DNA of 32,000 bases. It comes from Candidatus Iainarchaeum sp. (lineage in GTDB: Archaea > Iainarchaeota > Iainarchaeia > Iainarchaeales > GCA-2688035). Shown here one piece after another: positions 5,292 through 24,530 of the stretch (position 1 is its first letter; each line of letters opens with the position of its first letter). The notes beneath the pieces were generated by a model, which worked only from the letters and a program-made list of their open reading frames with translations, was not told the origin of the DNA and did not search any database. The position numbers and the translations under genes were made by a program. The stretch spans positions 1,171-33,170 of the forward strand of contig JAQTNI010000010.1 in assembly GCA_028713935.1 (NCBI GenBank). The letters are read 5' to 3'.

Positions 5292-5447
5292 ACAATCCAC
5301 CAATAAAATAATGCATCGATTCCAATAAAAAAGTTTTGAATCCCATCCAGGCAAACAGCAAAAATGCATCATCAAAGAATTGGAATAAAGGCAACTGGCA
5401 AACTGAGCCTGAAAAGACTTTTATATTCTTGTTGCGATTAGTTTGAT

Positions 5448-6041
5448 ATGTTCAAGCCGAATACTGAACAGAAAAAACTGATTCTGCAAATCGGGAAAGC
5501 CGCAAGGGAAGTTTGGAAATGGGAAAATTTGTGGGTTTTTATAGACTCTGAATCCCAAAGCGGGGCATTGCAACAATTCGGAGGTGAAGCACATATTGAC
5601 CCTGAAAAAGCAAGGTTGCATCCCTTGGGAAAAAAATTATTATATTTAAAGGATTTATTCAAAAAGCGCGCAAAGTTAGCATCTAGCAATTTTAAATCTT
5701 TAGCTGAAAATGCCAAAATGGCAGGAGTGCCTTTATCACTAATCGACAAAATTTTTGAAACAGTTGGCAACAAGAGTGCAATGCCAACCATGGAAAAATT
5801 GTTTTCTTTTGTAAGGAAAGTGGTTGAACAGCCTGAATTGTCAAGGGCTGCTGCAATCAAAGGGCTGCGTGATGCAATCAGGAATGCAGACCCGCGCTTT
5901 GTTTCACAAAGGGAAATCAACCTGCTGGCTGACAGCCTTGCAGCGCTTGAGAGCAAGCCTGTTAAATACACGCCTGCTCCGCATGTTGCAGAATATTTGG
6001 AATTGAGAAAAAGAGTGCAGCAGAAGCGCAGGCGGGTTTAA
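5448..6041 (+). CDS. Hypothetical basic helical protein (family member P1)
   Basis: 197-aa ORF with protein-like composition. The competing antisense ORF 5438..5971 is Ser/Leu/Ala-rich noise. No recognisable domain. It shares an LGK motif and a C-terminal TP....AE..EL.KRV-type helix with ORFs at 22455, 28957 and 29588. Confidence 0.5.
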   Translation: MFKPNTEQKKLILQIGKAAREVWKWENLWVFIDSESQSGALQQFGGEAHIDPEKARLHPLGKKLLYLKDLFKKRAKLASSNFKSLAENAKMAGVPLSLIDKIFETVGNKSAMPTMEKLFSFVRKVVEQPELSRAAAIKGLRDAIRNADPRFVSQREINLLADSLAALESKPVKYTPAPHVAEYLELRKRVQQKRRRV

Positions 6042-6784
6042 TCGCTTTCAATGCGTGGCGCCAAAAAGTAAGTGATTTTTGCTTCGCCTATGCTGTATTT
6101 TATTTGCACTGGCGCATTTGTCTTGAGCTTCAATTCTATTTCTGAGTCTGATGAAGGCGCTTTGAGCATGTCCTGCAAATAGTCAAGTGGAAACATGCTG
6201 CTTGTTTCTTTTGTTGTTTTTAATTCTACAAGATTTTTTCCGTCTTTTTTTGTTTTGTTGTACAAGTTGCCTTTGCTCGAATTTGCTTTTACATAAAAAT
6301 CTTCTTTTGTTGCGCCCAGGGAAACATGGGTGCTTATCAATGAGGCGTCTTTCAGGGCGTCTTGAATAATGCCTGCCTTGATTCTGATTTCAGTGTCAAA
6401 TTCTATTTTTGGGTTTGGAAGCTCTGCAGTTGAGATGTCAATCAGGGGTATTTCAAAGTGCCTTGTTGATGCGCCTTCAAAGGTTACATTTAACCTGCTT
6501 TTGTCTTCATCCAGTTCAAGCACAAGTGAATCGTTTGCTTTTGCCCTGTTCATTACCTGCCCGAAATAGGAAAGGTCTATCCCGATTTTTGTTTTTTCTT
6601 TTACATCATACTCCTTGAAGGCTTTTTTGTCAATTGCAAAGTCAACCATTGAAATCTGCGAAGGGTCTGTTGCCTTGAGGGAAAGCCTGTTTTCGTCAAG
6701 CAAAAATTCTGCTTCATCAATCAGCACAGAAATTGCGTCAATGCATTTCTGGAAATCAACTGCTTTTTCAAAAATTATTTTCAT
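6038..6784 (-). CDS. pcn: DNA polymerase sliding clamp PCNA, canonical paralog 2
   Basis: From ATG 6784: MKIIFEKAVDFQKCIDAISVLIDEAEFLLDENRLSLKATDPSQISMVDFAI ... FEIPLIDISTAELPNPK ... MFPLDYLQDMLK ... ITYFLAPRIESD. It has the canonical PCNA C-terminal LAPRIE tail. Confidence 0.88.
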   Translation of the reverse strand: MKIIFEKAVDFQKCIDAISVLIDEAEFLLDENRLSLKATDPSQISMVDFAIDKKAFKEYDVKEKTKIGIDLSYFGQVMNRAKANDSLVLELDEDKSRLNVTFEGASTRHFEIPLIDISTAELPNPKIEFDTEIRIKAGIIQDALKDASLISTHVSLGATKEDFYVKANSSKGNLYNKTKKDGKNLVELKTTKETSSMFPLDYLQDMLKAPSSDSEIELKLKTNAPVQIKYSIGEAKITYFLAPRIESD

Positions 6785-12701: not shown

Positions 12702-13958
12702 TTGGTAGCAACAAACGGTGGTTTTTTGGAAAAAATCCTGATTATTTGCGTTGACAGGGACAATGATTTGGGCAGAAAAACAGACGTGCAAGGCCCTGTC
12801 ATTGGACGGGAACCAAACCTGAAAGCGGCTTCAAAGCTCGCCCTTGCAGACCCCACAGAGGCGGATGCAAACTGCATTTTTGCAGCAGTAAAAAAATTTG
12901 ACGAATTAAAGGCAAAATTTCCCAACCTTGAAATTGCAACAGTAACAGGCATTGGAAAATCCGGATTTGAATCCGACAGGGAAATAAGCAGGCAGCTTGA
13001 TATTGTGCTGGAAAAATTTCCTGCTGAGGGGCTTGTGCTTGTAACTGACGGAGCAGAAGACGACCAGGTATTGCCAATCCTGCAAAGCAGGTCGAGAATT
13101 GTTTCAAAAGAAACCCTGATAATAAAACAGGCAATGGAAATAGAATCAGCTTTTTTCACTGTAAAAGAAGCCCTGAAAGACCCTTACATTGCAAGAATTG
13201 CATTTGGATTGCCTGGAATTGTATTGCTGTTTTACGCATTGACATACATTTACGGGGCACAGGCGCTTTTCATACAGGGCTTAATGCTAATAGTGGGGAT
13301 TTACCTTCTCCTGAAGGGGTTTGGCATAGAAGAAATAGCAATTTCAAGCCTGAGAAGGGTTACAAAGGGAATTTCTCTGCAAAGAATAAGCTCCTTGTTT
13401 TACATTGGGGCTTTTTTCATAATTGCTTTCGGCGCATACACTGCGTTCAATAATTTTGTTGGCATTCAAATGACAGACCTGCTTCTGGATTCAGTGAGCG
13501 TAATCCATTCAACATACATTTTCGTGGTTTTAGCGGCAATGAGCATGATAATAGGGAGAATACTTGATTTGCTGCATTTCAAAAAAGCATATCTGATAAG
13601 AAGATACCTGTTTACTGGTGTTTCAATAATAATGGTCTGGTTTGTATTGGACGCGGGAACACTTGTTTTTCTCAGGCAGGCAGACCTTGCATGGTTCCTA
13701 ATGACTTTAATAGGAAGCTTTGCAATACTGCTGGTTTCTTTCAGGGCACTAAGCATAATGGACATAAAAAAGAAAATAACAAAATTATTGATTGGATTGC
13801 CTGTTTACAACAAGGAAGGCAAATGGCTTGGCAAAGTTGAAAAAATCAACAAGGCCAAAAACACAATTGCATTTGTTGATTCAAAAACAAAAGACCTAAA
13901 GGAAATCCCGAAAGAAAAATTCAAAATGAGAGAAGGAAGAATACTGCTTATGCAGTAG
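12702..13958 (+). CDS. DUF373 family archaeal membrane protein with a C-terminal PRC-barrel-like domain
   Basis: ILIICVDRDNDLGRKTDVQGPVIGREPNLKAASKLALADPTEADANCIF is the DUF373 N-terminal signature. Several TM helices follow. The tail is IGLPVYNKEGKWLGKVEKINKAKNTIAF. Confidence 0.7.
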   Translation: MVATNGGFLEKILIICVDRDNDLGRKTDVQGPVIGREPNLKAASKLALADPTEADANCIFAAVKKFDELKAKFPNLEIATVTGIGKSGFESDREISRQLDIVLEKFPAEGLVLVTDGAEDDQVLPILQSRSRIVSKETLIIKQAMEIESAFFTVKEALKDPYIARIAFGLPGIVLLFYALTYIYGAQALFIQGLMLIVGIYLLLKGFGIEEIAISSLRRVTKGISLQRISSLFYIGAFFIIAFGAYTAFNNFVGIQMTDLLLDSVSVIHSTYIFVVLAAMSMIIGRILDLLHFKKAYLIRRYLFTGVSIIMVWFVLDAGTLVFLRQADLAWFLMTLIGSFAILLVSFRALSIMDIKKKITKLLIGLPVYNKEGKWLGKVEKINKAKNTIAFVDSKTKDLKEIPKEKFKMREGRILLMQ

Positions 13959-14093
13959 CTTTTCTAATGCTGATTTCAATGCGGCGATTAATCAAGACAA
14001 AAAAATGGAGCCATAAGCGCTGTCACGTAACAGCTACTTGCACCAATCCGGAAAAAACTTCTTAAAAGGCGTACACGAAAGCGAATCGCATTA

Positions 14094-14411
14094 TTGAAAA
14101 GACAGAATGAAATGATAGAATTGAATCGCCTAATGGAACTCGGCAACGTACGAAAAGAAGCTGCCAAAACAAAAAGGTTTAAAGAATTTCGAGAGCGATC
14201 ACCCGACGAATACAAAGAGTATGTGGAAAAGTTGGGTCGTGACCCGATAGAAGTTGCCGAATTTTTCCGCCGTGTATCCGGAAAATTCCAAGAAGAATTA
14301 GGCGAAAGAGGGAGCCGCTTTCAACACCGCGTTGAACGTTTGCAAGCTCGCTTAAAACAATTGGAAGAAAAAAAGCCTCTTCCAACGTTTGAAAGGAAAG
14401 AAAAAAAGTGA
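14094..14411 (+). CDS. Hypothetical highly charged helical protein (P2)
   Basis: 105-aa Lys/Arg/Glu-rich ORF. The frame is open from 14031, where upstream codons read NRKKLLKRRTRKRIALL without a canonical start. Arg is encoded mostly by CGN, unlike the AGR-dominated neighbours. Confidence 0.4.
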   Translation: MKRQNEMIELNRLMELGNVRKEAAKTKRFKEFRERSPDEYKEYVEKLGRDPIEVAEFFRRVSGKFQEELGERGSRFQHRVERLQARLKQLEEKKPLPTFERKEKK

Positions 14412-14457
14412 ATCTCTTCTAGTTCATTTTTAAATAAATTACAGACTATCAGCGCCC

Positions 14458-15111
14458 TTAAATTTTTTGGCTTGTTTTTTTTGCATCCTCAAGAAAAGCC
14501 TGGATTCCTTTTTCTGTCAGGGGATGCTTAATCATTTTTTGCAGGACATCAAAAGGCACTGTTGCAATGTCAGCACCAAGCTTTGCTGCTTCCGCAACAT
14601 GCATCGGGTGCCGAATGCTTGCAACAATTATTTTGCATTTCAAATTATAAGCCCTGAACACCTGGACAGTGTCACGGATTAACTGCATTCCTTCTTGCCC
14701 TACATCATCAAGCCTGCCTATGAAGGGGCTGACAAAAGAAGCGCCTGCTTTTGCTGCAAGAAGAGCCTGGTTCACTGAAAAAACAAGGGTTGCATTTGTC
14801 CTTATTCCTTTTTTGCTCAATTGTTTTATGGCTTTCAGGCCTTCTGAATTCAAGGGAATTTTTATTACAACATTTTTGTGTATCTGCACAAGTTTTTCAG
14901 CTTCTGCAGCCATTTTTTGTGAATCGTCAGTGCAGAGCACTTCGGCGCTAATTGCCCCGTCAACAATTGAGCAGATTTCCCTGACTGTTTCCTTGAAATC
15001 CTTTCCTTCCTTTGCAATGAGAGAAGGATTTGTTGTTACTCCGTCAATTACCCCCCAAGAATTTGCCTCTTTTACCTGTTCAATGTTCGCGGAATCCAAA
15101 AAAAGCTGCAT
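14458..15111 (-). CDS. tal: Transaldolase / fructose-6-phosphate aldolase (short TalC/FsaA type)
   Basis: From ATG 15111: [36 protein letters not shown] ... [18 protein letters not shown] ... TNATLVFS ... SPFIGRLDD. These are diagnostic short-transaldolase motifs, including the Schiff-base Lys in IKIP. Confidence 0.88.
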
Positions 15112-15186
15112 CAAATCCACCAAAAAAACAATAATTAGCATTTGAGGGCACATTAATTAAAAAAACAATGCATCTTATTTTCAAAA

Positions 15187-15486
15187 ATGGCGTTAAAAAT
15201 TCTTTCCAGGGCCAGGCAAGGCCTGCTGAATTCACAATTGGGGGTAAGGAATTACATAAGAAGAAGGACGAAACGAAAATTATTCAGAATGCTTGCTGAA
15301 AGAAAGCGGCTTATTGCAGAAGGCAAAAGCACAAGCCGGATTAATGAGAAAATAGGTGTTTTTAGGAAGAACATGGATAATGAATCTGTGCATGCTGTCG
15401 CAAAACTCTGGCTTTCCCCCTTGAAAGACGTGAGAGCTGCAAGAAAAATCAGGAAAGAACTGATGGGGAAAAAATTCCCAAAATAA
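15187..15486 (+). CDS. Hypothetical very basic protein (P3)
   Basis: 99-aa Arg/Lys-rich ORF (IRRRTKRKLFRMLAERKRLIAEGK). No recognisable domain. Confidence 0.4.
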   Translation: MALKILSRARQGLLNSQLGVRNYIRRRTKRKLFRMLAERKRLIAEGKSTSRINEKIGVFRKNMDNESVHAVAKLWLSPLKDVRAARKIRKELMGKKFPK

Positions 15487-15509
15487 TAATGTGGGCATTT
15501 AAAATTTTT

Positions 15510-16928
15510 TTATACTTGAACTGGCTTTGAAATTTTTTCCTTTATTTTTGGGATTTCTTTCAGGACTTTTTCCAGGGAATCCAAAAAAGAATTTTTTTTC
15601 TGGCCTGTTTCAAAAGCATTCTTCAAAACATCATTCAGGTTGCTTGCGGGGATAATTTTTATTTTTGCAAGCTCGCTTTTTGGCAGCACCACATCAAGCA
15701 TGTTTGCCTTTGGAATAATCACTTCCTTGAAGCCAGCAATTATTGCTGCCTGCACTTTTCCTGTTACACCGCCAACCGGCAAAACTTCTCCGCGCACGCT
15801 CAGGCTTCCAGTCATTGCAAGGCTTTGTTTTATTGGAATGCCTTCAAGCGCGCTGATCACTGCTGTTGCAACTGAAACGCTTGCGGAATCCCCTTCCACC
15901 CCTTCATAAGTCTGCAAAAATTGTATGTGCAAATCCCTTGTTGAAATGTCCTTTCCTGAAAGCTTTTTTATCAAAGCGGAAACGTTCTGCACTGCTTCTT
16001 TTGCAATTTCCCCAAGCTTTCCTGTTGGAATCAATTTTCCCTCTGACCTGCTTGAAGCTGGCGCAATTTCGGCTTCAATTGGCAGAATCATTCCTGCAGA
16101 GGTATCACTCATGACTGCAAGGCCGTTTACTCTTCCGATTGCAGCGCCCTTGCTTAAATAAACATCATAATCTTTTTTCATTTCAATCATTTTGTCAACC
16201 ATCTGCTGCTCCAAGGTGCGCGCAGACATTTTTGCCTGGACAATGTCTTCAATAAGGACAATGGAATGGCCTTTTTCCTTTGCAATATCGCCTGCTGCCC
16301 TAACCAGCCCGCCCAAATCCCTTAATTTCAAAGTCAATTTGTTTTTGTGGTCTGCCCTTTTTCTTGCCTCAAAAATAATTTCTTCAATTGCTTCCCTTGA
16401 AAAATGCGGGATTTTTCCATCTTTCTTGACTTCCTGGGCAACAAACTGCACAATCTTGTGCCTGTTTTCCTCTGTGTCAGGCATGTCAGTATTCATGTAA
16501 AGCTCATAGCCATAACCCCTGATTCTTGAGCGCAAAGCAGGATGGACTTTTCTTAGGTCCTTGTAATTGCCAGCTGCAACCAGGACAAAATCGCATGGAA
16601 CAGGATCTGTCCTTGTCATTGCACCGCTGCTTAATTCGCTTTGCCCAGTAATTGAATATTTTTTTTCCTGCATTGCAGTCAATAATTCCTGCTGTGCCTT
16701 TGGCGATAAAGTTGCAATTTCATCAAGAAACAAAACTCCACCTGAAGCGCGGTGAATCATTCCAGGCTCTACCCTTAAATGAGCAGGAGTCCCAAGGCCT
16801 CCGGAATTATGAACAAGAATGTCTTCTACAAAAAGGTTTCCTGTTTCAGTCGTAACATTATACACATGCCCCTTGAAAGGCAATTTTGAAACTTTTGCAG
16901 AAACAGGCTTAACAGTTTTTTCGCTCAT
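15510..16928 (-). CDS. lonB: Archaeal LonB protease C-terminal half, preceded by a C-intein
   Basis: From ATG 16928 (or TTG 16967): [41 protein letters not shown], then [30 protein letters not shown] (Walker B), the rest of the AAA+ module, and the Lon protease domain ([20 protein letters not shown] with catalytic Ser; [10 protein letters not shown] with Lys). Confidence 0.88.
16806..16928 (-). mobile_element. Split-intein C-fragment (IntC) fused to the LonB C-extein
   Basis: Intein blocks F/G: [22 protein letters not shown], ending in the canonical HN. The +1 nucleophile Ser follows (codon 16805-16803). It is 41 aa from ATG 16928, a typical IntC length. Confidence 0.8.
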
Positions 16929-16950
16929 AAGAATATCACGCTTGAAAAGG

Positions 16951-16963
16951 TTAAAATAATTAT
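16951..16963 (-). promoter_or_regulatory. TATA-box-like element for independent transcription of the LonB C-half
   Basis: The reverse strand reads ATAATTATTTTAA, centred about 29 nt upstream of ATG 16928. This supports ATG 16928 as the start of a leaderless or short-leader transcript. Confidence 0.4.
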
Positions 16964-17030
16964 GCAAATTGAAGAATGCACTAATAGTTACTGAAAAGAT
17001 ACTATGGATTTAATAAAAACAAATTGAATT

Positions 17031-17660
17031 TTGCAAAATGATTTTTTGGCGTTTAATCAAACCCAGATTAGGTTAATAAACGGGTTTGCAGATTCTTTAT
17101 TGCATATGAACATCGAAAGCATTTTTTGGCTTTTTGTTGTTTTGTGGTTCAGTATTTTTGCAATTTTAATATTTTTATTTCCTTTTTGTTATGGAAATAC
17201 TTTTGCTTTTTTAACGAACCTAAGAAAAAAATCCGAATGGGCAAAATTTGAAAAAAAACGAGAAACGCAGTGGGGCTATCAAATAATTTTCAATACCCGC
17301 GGCATGTCTCCGATTCTGCTTAACCTATTTATAATCTATTGTATTTATGCTTACCAACCTGAAATCTCGGGTGCATTAATATTCTCGTTTATCCCTCTGC
17401 TGTTTTGTTTTTTAGGTTTTTTCGCAGCTATCAAAATCAAGCCCGAAACATTGGAGTTCAAACAGCGGAAAGAGTTTCTTTGGCCAGGTAATTATGCACC
17501 AACTGATTATTTTCCAATAAAAAGCAATTCCAAAAAATACAGTTTGCCATGGTTTGCAGTTGAACTAAGCTCATTCCAATTTAAACAATACCTTATAATC
17601 AGCACAATTCTCGGAATAATATTAATGGTTTTATTTGGTGGTTTTAGATTGTTGGGATAG
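17031..17660 (+). CDS. Hypothetical multi-pass membrane protein inside the fractured lonB locus
   Basis: 209-aa ORF (TTG 17031; first ATG 17106) in a very AT-rich stretch, where long ORFs are unlikely by chance. It has 4-5 hydrophobic helices (IFWLFVVLWFSIFAILIFLFPF, ILLNLFIIYCIYAY, ALIFSFIPLLFCFLGFFAAI, LIISTILGIILMVLFGGF). It converges on the endonuclease gene and overlaps it by 30 nt. Confidence 0.5.
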   Translation: MQNDFLAFNQTQIRLINGFADSLLHMNIESIFWLFVVLWFSIFAILIFLFPFCYGNTFAFLTNLRKKSEWAKFEKKRETQWGYQIIFNTRGMSPILLNLFIIYCIYAYQPEISGALIFSFIPLLFCFLGFFAAIKIKPETLEFKQRKEFLWPGNYAPTDYFPIKSNSKKYSLPWFAVELSSFQFKQYLIISTILGIILMVLFGGFRLLG

Positions 17661-18818
17661 TAAAGAACATAGGATAGCGTCCATCTTGTATTCCCGCGCT
17701 TTTTTGATTTCTGCTTCAAGCCTTTGCTTTTTGTCTGAAGCGTAGCGCAGCGGAAAGTTTTCGTTGAATTTTATTATTTTTACAAAGTGCGTTTGGAAGA
17801 AGATTCTGTAACAGCAGCTCTTGTGCCCGTCCTTTCGCAGGATTATTTTGCCTATTTCTTTTCTGAGATTTGGAGTGCAAGTTAAGCCAACAGAAGCGCA
17901 AAGATTCTTCAAATCTCCAAGATACTTTCTATGCTGTTCTTCGAGCGCATCAATTTTGCTTAAGCCCAAAGAAAAATTTGTGAAGCGTTTTGTCCAGTTC
18001 CAGCGTTTGTCTCCGCGAAAGCTTGGCACGGAAACTTCTGAAGAAAGCAAACCATCCAAAAAAGCAATTTTCAAATGTCTTGGCAAATCAAAAACAAACT
18101 TTGGCAAAGTGTAAATTGTTGAAACCTTGTTCCCAACAGGAGTGCCCAAAGCAACAAAAAACCTGATAACATTTCTGTCAAAAGTTCGCATATTCCACGA
18201 ATGCCCGTATTCCCCGCCTTCAACCATATTGGTTTTTCCTGAAACAAAAGGAAAAATCTCCAGCAAATCTTTTTCCCACAAGTCAACGTCATCTTTTATG
18301 GAAGAAATGAAAGCCATTGTGTTAAGTCTTTTGTCAATGCCACCATCCCCAAACAAGGTTCCCAAAATTCGCAATATTTTTTCGCAATTTTTGTGATTTG
18401 TATTGAACGGCAAAAAATTTGCTTCTTTAAGTTTTTCAACAGTTTTTAATGGCAAAGGAATTGCTTTCTTTGCGCCTTTAGTGTGCCACCATCTTGTGCT
18501 GCCCTGAGAAATACCAAGCAATGTTGCACAGTGTTTATAGCCAATTTTTGGATTTTCTTGTATCAATTTTTGGTATTCCTTGTATTTTTGGCAGGAGTTT
18601 TTGTCTTCTTTCGCATAAGTATTGATTATGTCTTGTCCATCAACCAATAGCATAGGGCTCAAAGAAACCCTGCTTTCTGAATTTAAATTCGCTTCTGGAC
18701 AGCGGGTTTCCGCTGAACGGTTTTCAATTTTTTTATTCATCGCAAATCGCCTCGTAAAATTTTTTCTGAGACGTCTTGCGAATTTTGGAGGCATTAAATC
18801 CTTTGCACCAGCATTCAA
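17631..18818 (-). CDS. Free-standing LAGLIDADG homing endonuclease (double-motif)
   Basis: Two LAGLIDADG motifs about 100 aa apart: ILRILGTLFGDGGI (around residues 148-161) and KIAFLDGLLSSEVSV (around residues 249-263). An HTH-like N-terminal region is present (YKHCATLLGISQGSTRWWHTKG). TTG start 18818; alternative ATGs at 18794 and 18740. Confidence 0.8.
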   Translation of the reverse strand: MNAGAKDLMPPKFARRLRKNFTRRFAMNKKIENRSAETRCPEANLNSESRVSLSPMLLVDGQDIINTYAKEDKNSCQKYKEYQKLIQENPKIGYKHCATLLGISQGSTRWWHTKGAKKAIPLPLKTVEKLKEANFLPFNTNHKNCEKILRILGTLFGDGGIDKRLNTMAFISSIKDDVDLWEKDLLEIFPFVSGKTNMVEGGEYGHSWNMRTFDRNVIRFFVALGTPVGNKVSTIYTLPKFVFDLPRHLKIAFLDGLLSSEVSVPSFRGDKRWNWTKRFTNFSLGLSKIDALEEQHRKYLGDLKNLCASVGLTCTPNLRKEIGKIILRKDGHKSCCYRIFFQTHFVKIIKFNENFPLRYASDKKQRLEAEIKKAREYKMDAILCSLLSQQSKTTK

Positions 18819-18905
18819 AATTCAAGCGTGCAAAGGTTTAAGCCGAGAAAATTCGAGTCGAAAGAAAAAATTGAGAGGCGATTTTATTGCAATAAAGAAA
18901 AAGCG

Positions 18906-19922
18906 TTATCTGTGAACAATCGCCAGAATTGTTTCTTTTATTTCAAGCTGCAAAAGCTTGTCCCAAAACTTGATTTTTGAGGCTTCCTTGCTATTGCCTG
19001 AAGTGAAAACTTTATGCTCGGGAGTAAGCGCAATTGTTTTGTTCCCTGCATTAAGTTCTACAAGTTCTCCGTCAAAAGGTTGCCTGTTTAATGAAAGAAT
19101 TCTTGACAAAACAACTTTTCCGTCCTTTTGTCCAAGAGTAAAAATCTTTTCTTCCGCTGGCAGCATTATTGCTTCATGACCTTTTTCATTTCTAATAATT
19201 TCTTTGCCATACTTTGCATATATTTCGCTCCAGAGCTCTGCAAAAGGTTTTTCAACAAAGCTTTCTCCTTTTTGGACGTACAAATTATTGAAACCCAGAT
19301 GGCACTGGAGCGGATCATGGCGAACATCACCAAGCAGGCTTCCTGCCCTTGCGCCTGTTGCTTCAATAAAAGGGGCGGTTTTTTTTCCTGAATTGTCAAC
19401 AAGCAGTTTTGGGGTGCGCTTGCTTTCCCTTGTTTTCATTTGCGAGCCGAGAACCAGGCCAACAAACATAAATGCCCCCATCAGCATAAGTGCCGCAAAA
19501 ATTATGTCGGAATACCATTTCAAATACCAAAAAACCCATGCAAGCAAAAACCAGCCCATTGGCAATAAGAAGCCCATCAAGCGCATGTTATCGTCTTCTT
19601 TCTGCGCATCAAGCCTTGCCTTGTGGACAATCTTTTTTCCATCGCCTGCTTTCACTGCTTTTACGTGCGGATTGTTCTGGTCAGAGCCGTTTGGAAGAAT
19701 CAGGATATCCTGCAACTGGCTTAATGGCAGAATTTCCGCCATTGCCTGCGCAAGCATGCTTTTTCCAGTCCCTGGAAGGCCGACAAGCAGAACATTTCTT
19801 TTTTGCGCCGCGGCTTTCTGGATTATTTCAACGCTTTTTTCCTGCCCAACAATCTGGTCAATAAGGCGTTCCGGAACAGGAATCTCCGCAGTGCTTTTCC
19901 AGTCTTTTTTTTCCTTTGCCAC
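18906..19922 (-). CDS. lonB: Archaeal LonB protease N-terminal half, ending in an N-intein
   Basis: The N-terminus reads IDQIVGQEKSVEIIQKAAAQKRNVLLVGLPGTGKSMLAQAMA (Walker A). The LonB-specific membrane insertion follows (FLLPMGWFLLAWVFWYL, IIFAALMLMGAFMFVGLVLG). The extein then ends at GSLLGDVRHDPLQ (residue 206). Residues 207-338 are intein-like, followed by TAA. Confidence 0.88.
   Translation of the reverse strand: MAKEKKDWKSTAEIPVPERLIDQIVGQEKSVEIIQKAAAQKRNVLLVGLPGTGKSMLAQAMAEILPLSQLQDILILPNGSDQNNPHVKAVKAGDGKKIVHKARLDAQKEDDNMRLMGFLLPMGWFLLAWVFWYLKWYSDIIFAALMLMGAFMFVGLVLGSQMKTRESKRTPKLLVDNSGKKTAPFIEATGARAGSLLGDVRHDPLQCHLGFNNLYVQKGESFVEKPFAELWSEIYAKYGKEIIRNEKGHEAIMLPAEEKIFTLGQKDGKVVLSRILSLNRQPFDGELVELNAGNKTIALTPEHKVFTSGNSKEASKIKFWDKLLQLEIKETILAIVHR
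18909..19304 (-). mobile_element. Split-intein N-fragment (IntN) fused to the LonB N-extein
   Basis: Starts with Cys207 (TGC 19304-19302): CHLGFNNLYVQKGESFV (block A). GNKTIALTPEHKVFT supplies the TxxH block B. 132 aa, then a stop. There is no endonuclease domain and no C-terminal HN in this ORF. Confidence 0.8.
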
Positions 19923-22421: not shown

Positions 22422-22454
22422 AGTTTGTTTACAAATAAATGGAAGGTTTTTTTG

Positions 22455-22934
22455 ATGGGCAGCAGTAGAAAACCTGTTTCATTTGGCCAAGTGTGCGCCA
22501 AGCTGGTCAGGCGAAAATACAAACTTCCGAATGCGCAAACATTCAATATTGATTGTGAAATCGGCAGGTTCTTTAATGAAACCAGCAGATACAAAACTCA
22601 GGATGCATTAATAGCAGGATTAGGAATAGACGAAGCAACTTTCAGGCGCAGGGGAAAGGCTGTTGCAGGCATTCTTGAAAGGCAACTGGAAAGAGAGGTA
22701 AGGGATGCACTTTATAGGCTTGGCAAGGGAACTTCCACAGTACACAAAGAAAAGTTTCGCAAACAGAACCTTAAAACCTCACAAAAAACTTTTGGAAAAA
22801 CGCTTGAAAGCAATTCCAGGCAGAGGGGAAGGATTGCCTTGGCAAACAGGATAATAAACAAGAATGCGGATTTGCATCCTGAACAATTCAATGAAAAAAT
22901 AATTCCTTTGGTTAGAAGAATACTCGGGGTTTAG
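22455..22934 (+). CDS. Hypothetical basic protein (family member P4)
   Basis: ATG 22455 (the track gives TTG 22425): MGSSRKPVSFGQVCAKLVRRKYKL... It shares an LGK motif (ALYRLGKG) and the C-terminal HPEQFNEKIIPLVRRILGV with P6 and P7. Confidence 0.45.
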   Translation: MGSSRKPVSFGQVCAKLVRRKYKLPNAQTFNIDCEIGRFFNETSRYKTQDALIAGLGIDEATFRRRGKAVAGILERQLEREVRDALYRLGKGTSTVHKEKFRKQNLKTSQKTFGKTLESNSRQRGRIALANRIINKNADLHPEQFNEKIIPLVRRILGV

Positions 22935-22942
22935 GCGATAAT

Positions 22943-23674
22943 TTGAAAGTTGTTGTTCTTGCAGCTGGAAAAGGCATAAGAATGAAGCCCTTGACTGATG
23001 AAAAGCCAAAGGCAATGGTTGAACTGAAAGGAAAGCCTCTCCTTGAAAGAAGCCTTGAAGGGCTTAAAGAGGCTGGCGCTTCTGAAATCTGCCTTGTTGT
23101 TGGCTATTTGAAAGAGCAGATAAAGGATTTTTTTGGAAACAATTTTCAGGGAGTGCCTGTGTTTTATGTTGAACAAAAAGAGCAGCTTGGAACAGGCCAT
23201 GCTTTTCTGCTTGCAAAAAAATTCTGCGGAAAAGAAAATTTTTTGGCTTCCTATTGCGACCTGGTTTTTGAAGGCAGGTTCATAAAAAGCTTTTTTGAAT
23301 TTGCTGAAAAAAATTCCGGAAAGTTTTATGCTGTTGTTGCAGTAAGAAAAGCCAGTGATGTTTCAAAATTCGGGCTTGTGGAAACAGATGGCTGCATAGT
23401 AAAAAATCTTGTTGAAAAGCCAAAGCAGAAAAAACCAGGCCTTGTGAATGCGGGACTTTACTGGTTTTCCCCGAAAATTTTTGATGAGATTGAAAAAGCA
23501 AAAAAGTCCCCAAGAGGAGAAATAGAAATTACAACTCCACTCAAAAAATTGGCAAGCCAAAAACGGCTTGGCTGTTTTGAAGTGCAGGGAAAAAGCCTTG
23601 ACATTGGCACAAAAGAAGAACTGGAAAAAGCGGAAAAAGAATTTGGCGGGAAGCTGATAAAAAAATCAAACTGA
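22943..23674 (+). CDS. Sugar-1-phosphate nucleotidyltransferase (NTP_transferase family)
   Basis: MKVVVLAAGKGIRMKPLTDEKPKAMVELKGKPLL is the GxGxR..P.T...PK signature. Also LGTGHA and EKP motifs. TTG start. Confidence 0.8.
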   Translation: MKVVVLAAGKGIRMKPLTDEKPKAMVELKGKPLLERSLEGLKEAGASEICLVVGYLKEQIKDFFGNNFQGVPVFYVEQKEQLGTGHAFLLAKKFCGKENFLASYCDLVFEGRFIKSFFEFAEKNSGKFYAVVAVRKASDVSKFGLVETDGCIVKNLVEKPKQKKPGLVNAGLYWFSPKIFDEIEKAKKSPRGEIEITTPLKKLASQKRLGCFEVQGKSLDIGTKEELEKAEKEFGGKLIKKSN

Positions 23675-23714
23675 AAAGAAAAAAGCGGGCAATTTGAATT
23701 GAGGTTGTGCTATT

Positions 23715-24440
23715 ATGGCGAAGTTTTTCAATATTCGGCGGCTATTCCAATGGAGAAATAAGACTAAGCTGGCTTCACCGGAAAGCAATTTGCCTTTGCC
23801 GAAAATAAAAACTACCAAAAGAAGAACACTGGCATTTTCCCCTAAAATAAAACAATTTGTGAAACAACACCGAGGGGTATTAATCCCTTGCTTTCAAATG
23901 ATTCAGCAGCACTTGAAAGAATTAAGAGAAGGAATTCCCATAGCAAATAAAGAAACAGGAGTAAAAATTGAAAGAGCTGCCACAGGCGGGTATTGTGGGA
24001 ATGTAAAAATAGTGACTGTTAAAGTACAGGCGAGTGGAAAAGAATTTTTTGTAACAGTTGATGACAACCCAGATGGTGCCAAACAAGTATTAAAAAACCT
24101 TGAAATTGCTGAATCTCGTTTAGAAACAATTGAACATCGCATTGGAAAATACTCTGTTCAATTAATAAAACCTCATTTGGTATATGCACATTCTATTGCA
24201 CCTGGAACTACAAACCAAACTGTTTTTTGGGTAACAAATTTCTATTCCCCGAAAGAGGTAATGCAAGTGTGGGAAACTCGAGGAAAGCTGCGGCAGAGCC
24301 TTTATGCCGCATTAACACAATTAAAAATGCAAGGAACCCTACTGCCATCTGTTACAAATACCTTTTACAATAGAAAAACAAGAGAAATTCTTATTTATGA
24401 CATTGAAGACTACCCATTTCCATTTATTAGAGAGAAATAG
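23715..24440 (+). CDS. Hypothetical protein (P5)
   Basis: 241-aa ORF with mixed alpha/beta-type composition. It has a Gly-rich segment ATGGYCGNVKIV and a late ILIYDIED segment, faintly reminiscent of kinase-like folds. This is not enough for an assignment. Confidence 0.5.
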   Translation: MAKFFNIRRLFQWRNKTKLASPESNLPLPKIKTTKRRTLAFSPKIKQFVKQHRGVLIPCFQMIQQHLKELREGIPIANKETGVKIERAATGGYCGNVKIVTVKVQASGKEFFVTVDDNPDGAKQVLKNLEIAESRLETIEHRIGKYSVQLIKPHLVYAHSIAPGTTNQTVFWVTNFYSPKEVMQVWETRGKLRQSLYAALTQLKMQGTLLPSVTNTFYNRKTREILIYDIEDYPFPFIREK

Positions 24441-24530
24441 ACAAAAAAAATCGCTTTTGTTTAGGATGACTTGGAAAAAAAATTGTTGCTTCGCAAAATG
24501 GTTCAAGCACAAAACTAAGGAAAGAAACAG

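Follow-up and report, generated by a model that had tools for sequence, protein, structure and literature searches.

The archaeal protease gene lonB lies in two separate pieces in a 32,000-nt stretch of contig JAQTNI010000010.1 (assembly GCA_028713935.1), here called the window, from a DPANN archaeon of the Iainarchaeia (Diapherotrites). The gene is interrupted at ...GDVRHDPLQ/SGGLGTP..., where the slash marks the insertion point. Our reading, to which we assign a probability of roughly 85%, is that this single chromosomal lonB carries a mobile cassette of the 'fractured gene' type, that the two halves of the protein are rejoined by trans-splicing of a split intein, and that the arrangement likely arose by fission. 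All positions given below are those of the window, and loci labelled L plus a number are relatives of the window locus in other genomes.

An interrupted lonB and its empty counterpart

The open reading frames (ORFs) lie where an earlier note on this DNA had placed them (Table 1), and profile searches with NCBIfam and Pfam confirm its assignment of the two flanking ones to LonB. The NCBIfam LonB model (TIGR00764) matches the N-terminal half (N-half) over model positions 3-238 and the C-terminal half (C-half), taken alone, over positions 192-606 with 654.6 bits (cutoff 516.6), such that the two jointly span positions 3-606 of 608. Pfam recognizes a P-loop in the N-half and AAA, LonB_AAA-LID and Lon_C in the C-half. 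The motifs GLPGTGKS, VLFLDEI, GDSAS and VGGVTGK can be read directly in the window LonB translation, and the exteins are otherwise those of an ordinary LonB. The insertion point falls in the AAA+ module, between the Walker A motif and membrane anchor on one side and the Walker B motif on the other, which therefore reside on different polypeptides.

The free-standing endonuclease gene and the opposite-strand ORF with several transmembrane (TM) segments that the note had described between the two halves are both present, though their starts had to be revised. For the endonuclease, the conservation among homologs and a TATA-like box place the start at M56 (ATG 18653), while the NCBI call is M27. 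The membrane ORF probably begins at ATG 17106, because its closest relative starts at the residue aligned to M26.

The N-half, the endonuclease ORF and the C-half, all on the minus strand, share one reading frame. The N-half ends at a TAA, a TGA follows 29 codons on, and many stops lie in frame past the endonuclease ORF. Thus more than a single nonsense codon separates these ORFs, and lonB is truly in pieces. Across loci the N-half terminates in TAA, TGA or TAG, and the endonuclease ORF occupies any of the three frames relative to the N-half. Readthrough or recoding of a contiguous intein was considered and rejected, given the two stops after the window N-half and the many after the endonuclease, and it is excluded by the variable stops and frames across loci. 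The shared frame of the window, together with an insert of exactly 833 codons, could be a relic of a once-contiguous intein ORF or could be chance (about 1 in 9); L002, the closest relative, has each of the three genes in a frame of its own.

A scan of one genome per species yielded 80 related loci, onto all of which the six pieces of the window locus were mapped. At roughly 48 of the 80 there is no intein at this LonB site, Ca. Iainarchaeum andersonii included. The most informative empty allele is L011, a Candidatus Iainarchaeum metagenome-assembled genome (MAG) with an uninterrupted lonB in which the N-extein meets the C-extein at Q206/S. Its exteins are 95.6% (N-extein) and 95.3% (C-extein) identical to those of the window, and the two genomes are syntenic over ~18.5 kb at 79-87% nucleotide identity (blastn). 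The nucleotide alignment of L011 lonB to the window breaks at 19306/16802, so that L011 is without exactly the 2,499-bp segment 16806..19304, and its empty site reads CGCCATGATCCTCTACAA/AGTGGCGGCCTTGGCACTCC. The earlier prediction that the joined exteins would read as uninterrupted LonB is therefore borne out by a natural allele, which runs through as ...DPLQ/SGGLGTP.... The synteny between window and L011 is also interrupted by unaligned segments at window positions 13957-15510, 22427-22943 and 23645-24525, which point to further indels or gene replacements between the two genomes.

Intein halves and the enzyme between them

Judged by sequence, the flanking pieces are two complementary halves of a class-1 intein, an N-terminal fragment (IntN) and a C-terminal fragment (IntC). 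In 25 full-length homologs of the N-half, the extein always ends in LGDVRHDPLQ and is followed by Cys or Ser; residue 1 of the window intein is Cys207, and in 29 of 29 split loci this residue is Cys or Ser. Block B (TPEH) is invariant in both alignments examined (25 and 17 sequences). The N-halves stop 124-138 residues into the intein, and the split falls at the canonical endonuclease-insertion point. On the other side of the break, blocks F and G are nearly invariant. All 19 loci compared share the terminal Asn and Ser+1, and the residue before that Asn is mostly His, with K, C, A or S in a few loci. When IntN and IntC of the window are fused, Pfam Intein_splicing matches across the join (positions 20-155 of 155, E 2.4e-6); among fused pairs of the family, 15 of 17 match Intein_splicing (best E 2.2e-9) and 10 of 17 match Hint. 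In the PDB, a profile built from the fused pairs finds inteins and nothing else, namely MJ0781 (2.1e-9), NrdJ-1 (1.7e-6) and two VMA inteins. With the catalytic blocks conserved and the fused halves matching both Intein_splicing and known intein structures, the claim that residues 207-338 of the N-half and 1-41 of the C-half are intein holds up. An NCBI MAG protein from 'Candidatus ainarchaeum sp.' is 100% identical to the N-half, which also has no fewer than 119 other full-length homologs (330-390 aa, identities as low as 48%), mostly labelled Candidatus Diapherotrites.

The middle ORF is, by its modelled structure, a double-motif LAGLIDADG homing endonuclease with the pseudo-dimeric alpha-beta-beta-alpha-beta-beta-alpha fold. 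A sequence profile of its family found no match in the PDB, and a fold search was therefore needed. The AlphaFold2 model (37 homologs) has a predicted local distance difference test score (pLDDT) of 94.8 and a predicted template modelling score (pTM) of 0.90, and all 46 Foldseek matches in the PDB at E<=0.001 are LAGLIDADG enzymes, including I-Tsp061I (2e-8), E-DreI, I-DmoI and the intein endonuclease domains of TliVMA and PI-TkoII. The acidic residues of the two motifs, LGTLFGDGG (D103) and AFLDGLLSSE (E206; family form AFLDGxLxSE), are invariant in 37 sequences. Fold and motifs agree with the note's description of a double-motif LAGLIDADG gene. The N-terminal region, which resembles a helix-turn-helix (HTH), is also conserved among homologs. 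Pfam LAGLIDADG_3 is found in 7 of 19 homologs (best E 4.7e-5), and NCBIfam RtcB_rel_intein matches the window ORF at 5e-18, in the endonuclease part of intein-containing RtcB. In a database of 5.8 billion sequences the family comprises just 112 proteins, nearly all free-standing and 320-390 aa long, several of which are labelled Lon-like by JGI. No relatives were found on IMG/VR viral contigs, and a viral origin or vector was accordingly rejected. In some genomes the endonuclease gene is truncated, frameshifted or carries in-frame stops (L013:9287-9505; L020:3735-4898; L022:3470-4478; L031:681-1826), which fits decay after fixation, as in a homing cycle, although sequencing errors are possible.

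The downstream genes also appear to carry their own expression signals. Nearly every C-half has a TATA-like box of the CCTATTTAAT type 22-30 nt upstream of its ATG (about 16 loci); in the window it reads ATTATTTTAA, with the core TATTTTAA. The endonuclease gene has a recurrent box of its own, GATTATAAA/AATTTAAA, which lies 22-28 nt ahead of the ATG across loci. Such spacing is the geometry of an archaeal promoter with a leaderless or very short-leader mRNA, and we infer that the conserved boxes act as promoters. The earlier note had assigned the C-half a TATA-like box of its own, and that box is indeed conserved upstream of the gene across relatives. No conserved RNA hairpin was found upstream of the endonuclease gene across 17 loci; the window has a 6-bp inverted repeat (cagcgg/ccgctg) there, which was rejected as a hairpin candidate since it is not conserved in these loci. 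Searches of the window for tRNAs and known RNA families returned none.

The closest cassette-bearing relative, L002, is collinear with the window over 4.4 kb at 83% nucleotide identity and allows selection to be estimated piece by piece (Nei-Gojobori estimates, window versus L002). The ratio of nonsynonymous to synonymous divergence (dN/dS) is 0.083 for the N-extein (synonymous divergence, dS, 1.62), 0.081 for IntN (dS 0.88), 0.096 for the endonuclease (dS 0.66), 0.23 for the 41 codons of IntC (dS 0.44) and 0.095 for the C-extein (dS 1.07); the membrane ORF stands at 0.47 (dS 0.24). Both intein halves and the endonuclease are under purifying selection. The values for IntN and the endonuclease are similar to those of the exteins, indicating that the element is not decaying.

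Table 1. Features of the lonB locus in the window
Feature	Position	Strand	Remarks
lonB N-half gene	18906..19922	-	338 aa plus stop; N-extein, then IntN; from ORF and TIGR00764
N-extein, residues 1-206	19305..19922	-	Walker A GLPGTGKS, membrane hairpin, end ...GDVRHDPLQ; from alignment
IntN, 132 aa	18909..19304	-	Cys1 codon 19302..19304; block B TPEH 19014..19025
LAGLIDADG homing endonuclease gene	17631..18653	-	340 aa from M56; upstream start options 18740, 18818
Endonuclease catalytic residues	D103 18345..18347; E206 18036..18038	-	both invariant
Endonuclease, mechanical ORF	17631..18818	-	395 codons; ORF listing
TATA-like box AATTTAAA	18682..18689	-	~28 nt upstream of endonuclease ATG; putative promoter
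Membrane-protein cargo gene	17106..17660	+	~184 aa, four TM segments; probable start at M26
Membrane protein, mechanical ORF	17031..17660	+	209 codons; ORF listing
TATA-like box TATTTTAA	16951..16958	-	-30..-23 from C-half ATG; putative promoter
lonB C-half gene	15510..16928	-	472 aa plus stop; IntC, then C-extein
IntC, 41 aa	16806..16928	-	terminal Asn codon 16806..16808; Ser+1 codon 16803..16805
C-extein, 431 aa	15513..16805	-	Walker B, lid, Lon protease domain; GDSAS serine and VGGVTGK lysine motifs
Whole inserted cassette	16806..19304	-	2,499 bp = 833 codons; missing from syntenic L011

Range of forms, mobility and cargo

A LonB split at this site, with LAGLIDADG gene and cargo, is real, as the earlier note had it, but it is no singleton: many such loci exist. 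The gene is split at this site in 29 of the 80 loci, and these 29 species-level genomes, down to 45% identity, preserve both the layout and the position of the stops. An endonuclease gene lies between the halves in 20 of them (disrupted in L013, L020, L022 and probably L031); three have both halves and no endonuclease (L004, L009, L016), four end too near a contig end to tell (L003, L006, L017, L025), and two have no C-half within the following 8-10 kb (L047, L076). A contiguous, one-ORF intein occurs in two further loci (L029, L032), and its in-frame endonuclease domain is 29% identical to the window enzyme over ~330 aa, the HTH-like region included. No mini-intein was found at this site among the 80 loci. 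The two loci lacking a nearby C-half (L047:1-975 and L076:1331-2311) are divergent N-halves, 45-54% identical, labelled Micrarchaeota and ending in IntN, with no endonuclease within the following 8-10 kb either. Since no C-half follows over that distance, these genomes may encode the two halves at unlinked sites, like those of DnaE and N. equitans PolB.

A further form came from a search with the contiguous intein among protein clusters, which returned about 45 Woesearchaeota and Nanoarchaeota proteins of 670-740 aa (P0238-P0287) in which N-extein, IntN and endonuclease form one ORF; the penultimate intein residue of this two-piece form is not His. The same contiguous DPANN LonB intein, used as query, returned no Thermococcales proteins. 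We checked the two-piece form in one case, L083:6001-9401, on a 1-Mb Woesearchaeota contig. There the intein begins at the same site (...DPFQ/T), the N fragment of 680 aa stops after the endonuclease domain, and the C-half gene, which overlaps the N fragment by 4 nt, encodes a 39-aa IntC (...GILAKN/SGGLGTP) followed by the C-extein.

Some genomes carry a second intein in LonB. In L013:10724-13857 and L018:13178-16364 the protein is apparently in three pieces: the middle ORF consists of the IntC of the first intein, a 71-aa middle extein and a second intein at ...AVP/C, comprising IntN and an in-frame LAGLIDADG domain, after which the ORF stops; the third ORF opens with the second IntC (...VVHN/CDFVLVAAG) and continues with the remaining LonB. 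The second break is at the same place in both loci, and two trans-splicing steps would be needed. In L004:6214-9192 the C-half holds a second, contiguous LAGLIDADG intein 13 residues past the first site (borders ...HLRVE/CVTAD...GVLIHN/CGLIHK...), so that two inteins stand nearly adjacent in one AAA+ segment. One locus, L027 (JAFCCG010000016.1), is labelled 'Chloroflexi bacterium' and yet carries the archaeal split LonB cassette in a layout nearly identical to that of L022; a mistake in binning or in the public label is the probable cause.

Several lines of evidence bear on mobility. In a tree of N-exteins, split and empty alleles are interspersed, and close pairs differ in state (window/L011, L012/L080, L016/L057-58, L021/L078). 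Intein and extein similarity are often discordant: L018 and L004 are 96% identical in the N-extein and 58% in IntN, L006 and L024 87% and 44%, and L023 and L021, conversely, 66% and 89%; over 351 pairs the two identities correlate with r = 0.45. Synonymous divergence between the window and L002 is 0.44-0.88 within the cassette versus 1.07-1.62 in the exteins. In a three-way comparison of informative sites among window, L011 and L002, the window extein sides with L011 at 74% of sites, for an L002 background of 26%, yet of the 20 informative sites nearest the junction on its 3' side, 13 agree with L002 (p = 1.9e-4), and the best 20-site L002-like stretch in the whole gene begins at the junction (scan p = 0.02). 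This stretch looks like a co-conversion tract in the sequence comparison. The whole cassette apparently still moves by homing, to go by these alignments; homing would account for its patchy occurrence, for intein and extein histories that disagree, and for the tract resembling co-conversion.

The gap between the LonB halves also holds other genes. In the window this is the membrane ORF, open there and in L002 with 80% aa identity, which encodes a protein with four hydrophobic segments by inspection and has a TTAATAAA box ~27 nt upstream of its ATG. It matches nothing in Pfam or NCBIfam, and among 1.84 billion representative proteins only three relatives turned up; a small, unrelated contig carries a distant relative. 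In other genomes, gaps of about 0.1 to 3 kb separate the LonB pieces, with some genes on the opposite strand. Cargo elsewhere includes a Pol-beta/NTP_transf_2 nucleotidyltransferase, AAA_14 (+DUF4143) ATPases, a Bro-N protein and a TPR protein (L009:4953-5759; L016:3856-5037, 5387-6478; L022:5400-6710; L020:5047-5907). A family of ~230 aa (MAGLFAHVWIA...DDYFFGAIAPDIRY...AGYETHLIVD), for which Pfam gives no match, recurs between the endonuclease gene and the C-half (L009:4025-4708, 5962-6663; L014:12321-13043; L024:12633-13331; L026:12232-13038), twice in L009. The gap thus behaves like a small insertion hot spot, the membrane ORF being one cargo among many.

Mechanism, origin and relation to known systems

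In the mechanism that we propose, the LonB halves would be translated separately, and IntN and IntC would associate into a HINT fold. Cys1 would undergo an N-S acyl shift to a thioester, followed by transesterification to Ser+1; cyclisation of the terminal Asn and an O-N shift would then leave Q206 joined to Ser+1 in a LonB of 637 aa. The endonuclease, for its part, would cut intein-free lonB alleles, and repair of the break would copy the whole cassette, cargo included. As to origin, the cassette would have arisen by fission of a full-length intein, by way of a two-piece intermediate, with the endonuclease on IntN, that survives in Woesearchaeota. Sequence comparison makes such a fission the most likely origin, because homology between the free enzyme and the in-frame domains of this site extends along its entire length and because a two-piece form survives.

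Several points count against this reading. Trans-splicing is deduced from the sequence, and the series of forms may run in either direction, by fission or by fusion. The fused window intein scores 27.9 bits on Intein_splicing, under the curated cutoff of 35.8 bits; a few relatives end in VKN or VCN, with no penultimate His; and the contiguous and two-piece forms open with Thr1. Unlike in DnaE, the net charges of IntN and IntC are not complementary (means +1.6 and +1.8), the basic part of IntC being its N-terminal linker only. The window endonuclease has no Pfam match of its own. The length of the putative co-conversion tract was picked after seeing the data, a second cluster of L002-like sites lies ~1 kb downstream, and the dS values are near saturation. 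Finally, no second Lon gene was found in a search that covered the 32-kb window.

Other explanations can be set against this evidence. The intein halves could be a docking module only, with the LonB halves assembling by IntN-IntC association without a peptide bond, much as interaction domains of mobile-element descent non-covalently rescue a gene broken by a homing endonuclease in phage Aeh1 NrdA (PMC3045599). The non-canonical penultimate residues of some relatives would suit such a role, and splicing itself is deduced. Yet the residue-1 nucleophile, TPEH, the terminal Asn and Ser+1 are all conserved, and these are needed for catalysis, not for docking; moreover, an unspliced HINT domain of ~173 aa would sit within the AAA+ module of a hexameric ATPase whose exteins are otherwise ordinary LonB. 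We regard docking alone as quite improbable. Even less probable, in our view, is a dead or dying lonB, a pseudogene left by decay of an old intein in a cell that obtains its protease elsewhere. It would account for the shared frame of the three minus-strand ORFs, as expected of a once-contiguous intein gene, and for the disrupted endonucleases of L013, L020 and L022, and the search for a second Lon extended over the window only. It sits badly with dN/dS of 0.08-0.10 in exteins, IntN and endonuclease, with a split whose stop keeps its place in 29 species-level genomes down to 45% identity, with the conserved TATA-like boxes before the C-half, and with the lack of a second Lon in the window. That the split is an artefact, either of a chimeric assembly or of a contiguous gene read through by recoding, frameshifting or translational bypass, has a negligible chance. 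The sequence is a MAG contig, and its N-half and endonuclease ORF are in one frame, two stops apart; but the same gene order recurs in independent assemblies from many studies, all three stop codons are used, the endonuclease may be in any frame, intervening genes, partly on the opposite strand, keep the pieces 0.1 to 3 kb apart, and collinearity between window and L002 extends for 4.4 kb.

An alternative also exists for the origin of the cassette. A foreign free-standing endonuclease gene could have invaded a mini-intein, with the contiguous forms as secondary fusions. This is the published model for fractured genes; the promoter-like boxes of the endonuclease and the C-half are what it predicts, and the series of forms can in principle be read in the reverse direction. 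We nevertheless consider invasion unlikely: LAGLIDADG enzymes of this type usually reside inside inteins, the free enzyme is homologous to the contiguous and two-piece in-frame domains at the same LonB site throughout, HTH-like region included, its family has only 112 members, several of them Lon-like by JGI label and none on viral contigs, and there is no mini-intein at this site among the 80 loci. A wider proposal, about which we are evenly divided, is that LonB 'site a' of DPANN archaea is home to one intein lineage, still extant at every step by which split inteins come about, and that the three-gene cassette is a still active homing element, carrying passenger genes between genomes inside an essential gene. 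The stages would be contiguous, two-piece (Woesearchaeota/Nanoarchaeota), three-gene fractured (Iainarchaeia, as in the window), endonuclease-less, cargo-laden and unlinked.

In cyanobacterial DnaE and Nanoarchaeum equitans PolB, naturally split inteins have their two halves unlinked. Like these, the LonB intein is split at the endonuclease-insertion point, which leaves most of it in IntN and only ~35-45 aa in IntC. DnaE and PolB rebuild an essential protein by trans-splicing, as the window LonB would also do, and L047 and L076 resemble their unlinked stage. Unlike in DnaE and PolB, the window halves are linked, about 2 kb apart, with the endonuclease kept, and the host protein is another one; unlike DnaE, the window family is without charge complementarity.

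The closest precedent in layout is the set of fractured genes defined by Dassa, London, Stoddard, Schueler-Furman and Pietrokovski (2009, Nucleic Acids Research; PMC2677866), 26 marine-metagenome loci of inferred phage origin that affect eight types of DNA synthesis or repair enzymes. The endonucleases there are GIY-YIG or Vsr-like, an RNA hairpin lies just upstream of the start codon in 15 of 16, and a free-standing endonuclease gene is proposed to have invaded a pre-existing mini-intein (PMC2677866). As in that set, a split intein breaks a conserved enzyme gene, the downstream half has expression signals of its own, and a free-standing endonuclease gene lies between the halves, in the same order in 20 species-level loci; endonuclease-less and dispersed variants occur in that set too. 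In contrast, the window cassette is in a cellular archaeal chromosome and in a protease gene, LonB, and its endonuclease is a LAGLIDADG enzyme homologous to the in-frame domain of the intein. The DPANN cassettes also differ in having no conserved hairpin and no viral relatives, and in having accumulated cargo genes.

Among other reports, Novikova et al. (2016; PMC4760082) list 10 LonB inteins, all from Euryarchaeota and none indicated as split; what they share with the window intein is the host protein family. Actinobacteriophage inteins can have out-of-frame or antisense endonuclease ORFs, most of them in inteins that are not split (bioRxiv 10.1101/2025.01.02.630785). They resemble the window cassette in that the endonuclease is encoded apart from the splicing domain and in the evidence for continued transfer; those are phage genes, however, and none of the examples described there is LonB, archaeal or cargo-bearing. 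The earlier note knew of no fractured LonB with a LAGLIDADG enzyme and cargo, and the literature that we searched, which is incomplete and may miss an earlier description, likewise holds no LonB, archaeal or LAGLIDADG case, and so no archaeal chromosomal LonB fractured gene with a LAGLIDADG enzyme. Fractured genes as a layout go back in the literature to 2009; one in LonB, on an archaeal chromosome and with a LAGLIDADG enzyme, appears to be new.

These results extend the fractured-gene arrangement from phage genes of DNA metabolism to an archaeal housekeeping membrane protease. Because contiguous, two-piece, three-gene, endonuclease-less and dispersed forms occur in one family, the origin of split inteins becomes testable by phylogeny and biochemistry. 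The family is also a rich natural source of new split inteins, among them Ser1/Ser+1 variants with no catalytic cysteine, and inteins of that kind are sought for protein ligation under oxidising conditions. The varied accessory genes between the halves suggest an unnoticed route by which passenger genes hitch-hike with a homing element. If the proposal of a lineage surviving in every stage is true, stepwise fission of a full-length intein is a route to split inteins in cellular chromosomes, and together with its endonuclease a split intein can serve as a small mobile island that carries cargo. For the organisms themselves, LonB activity in many DPANN archaea would depend on protein trans-splicing, and in some genomes on two successive steps of it.

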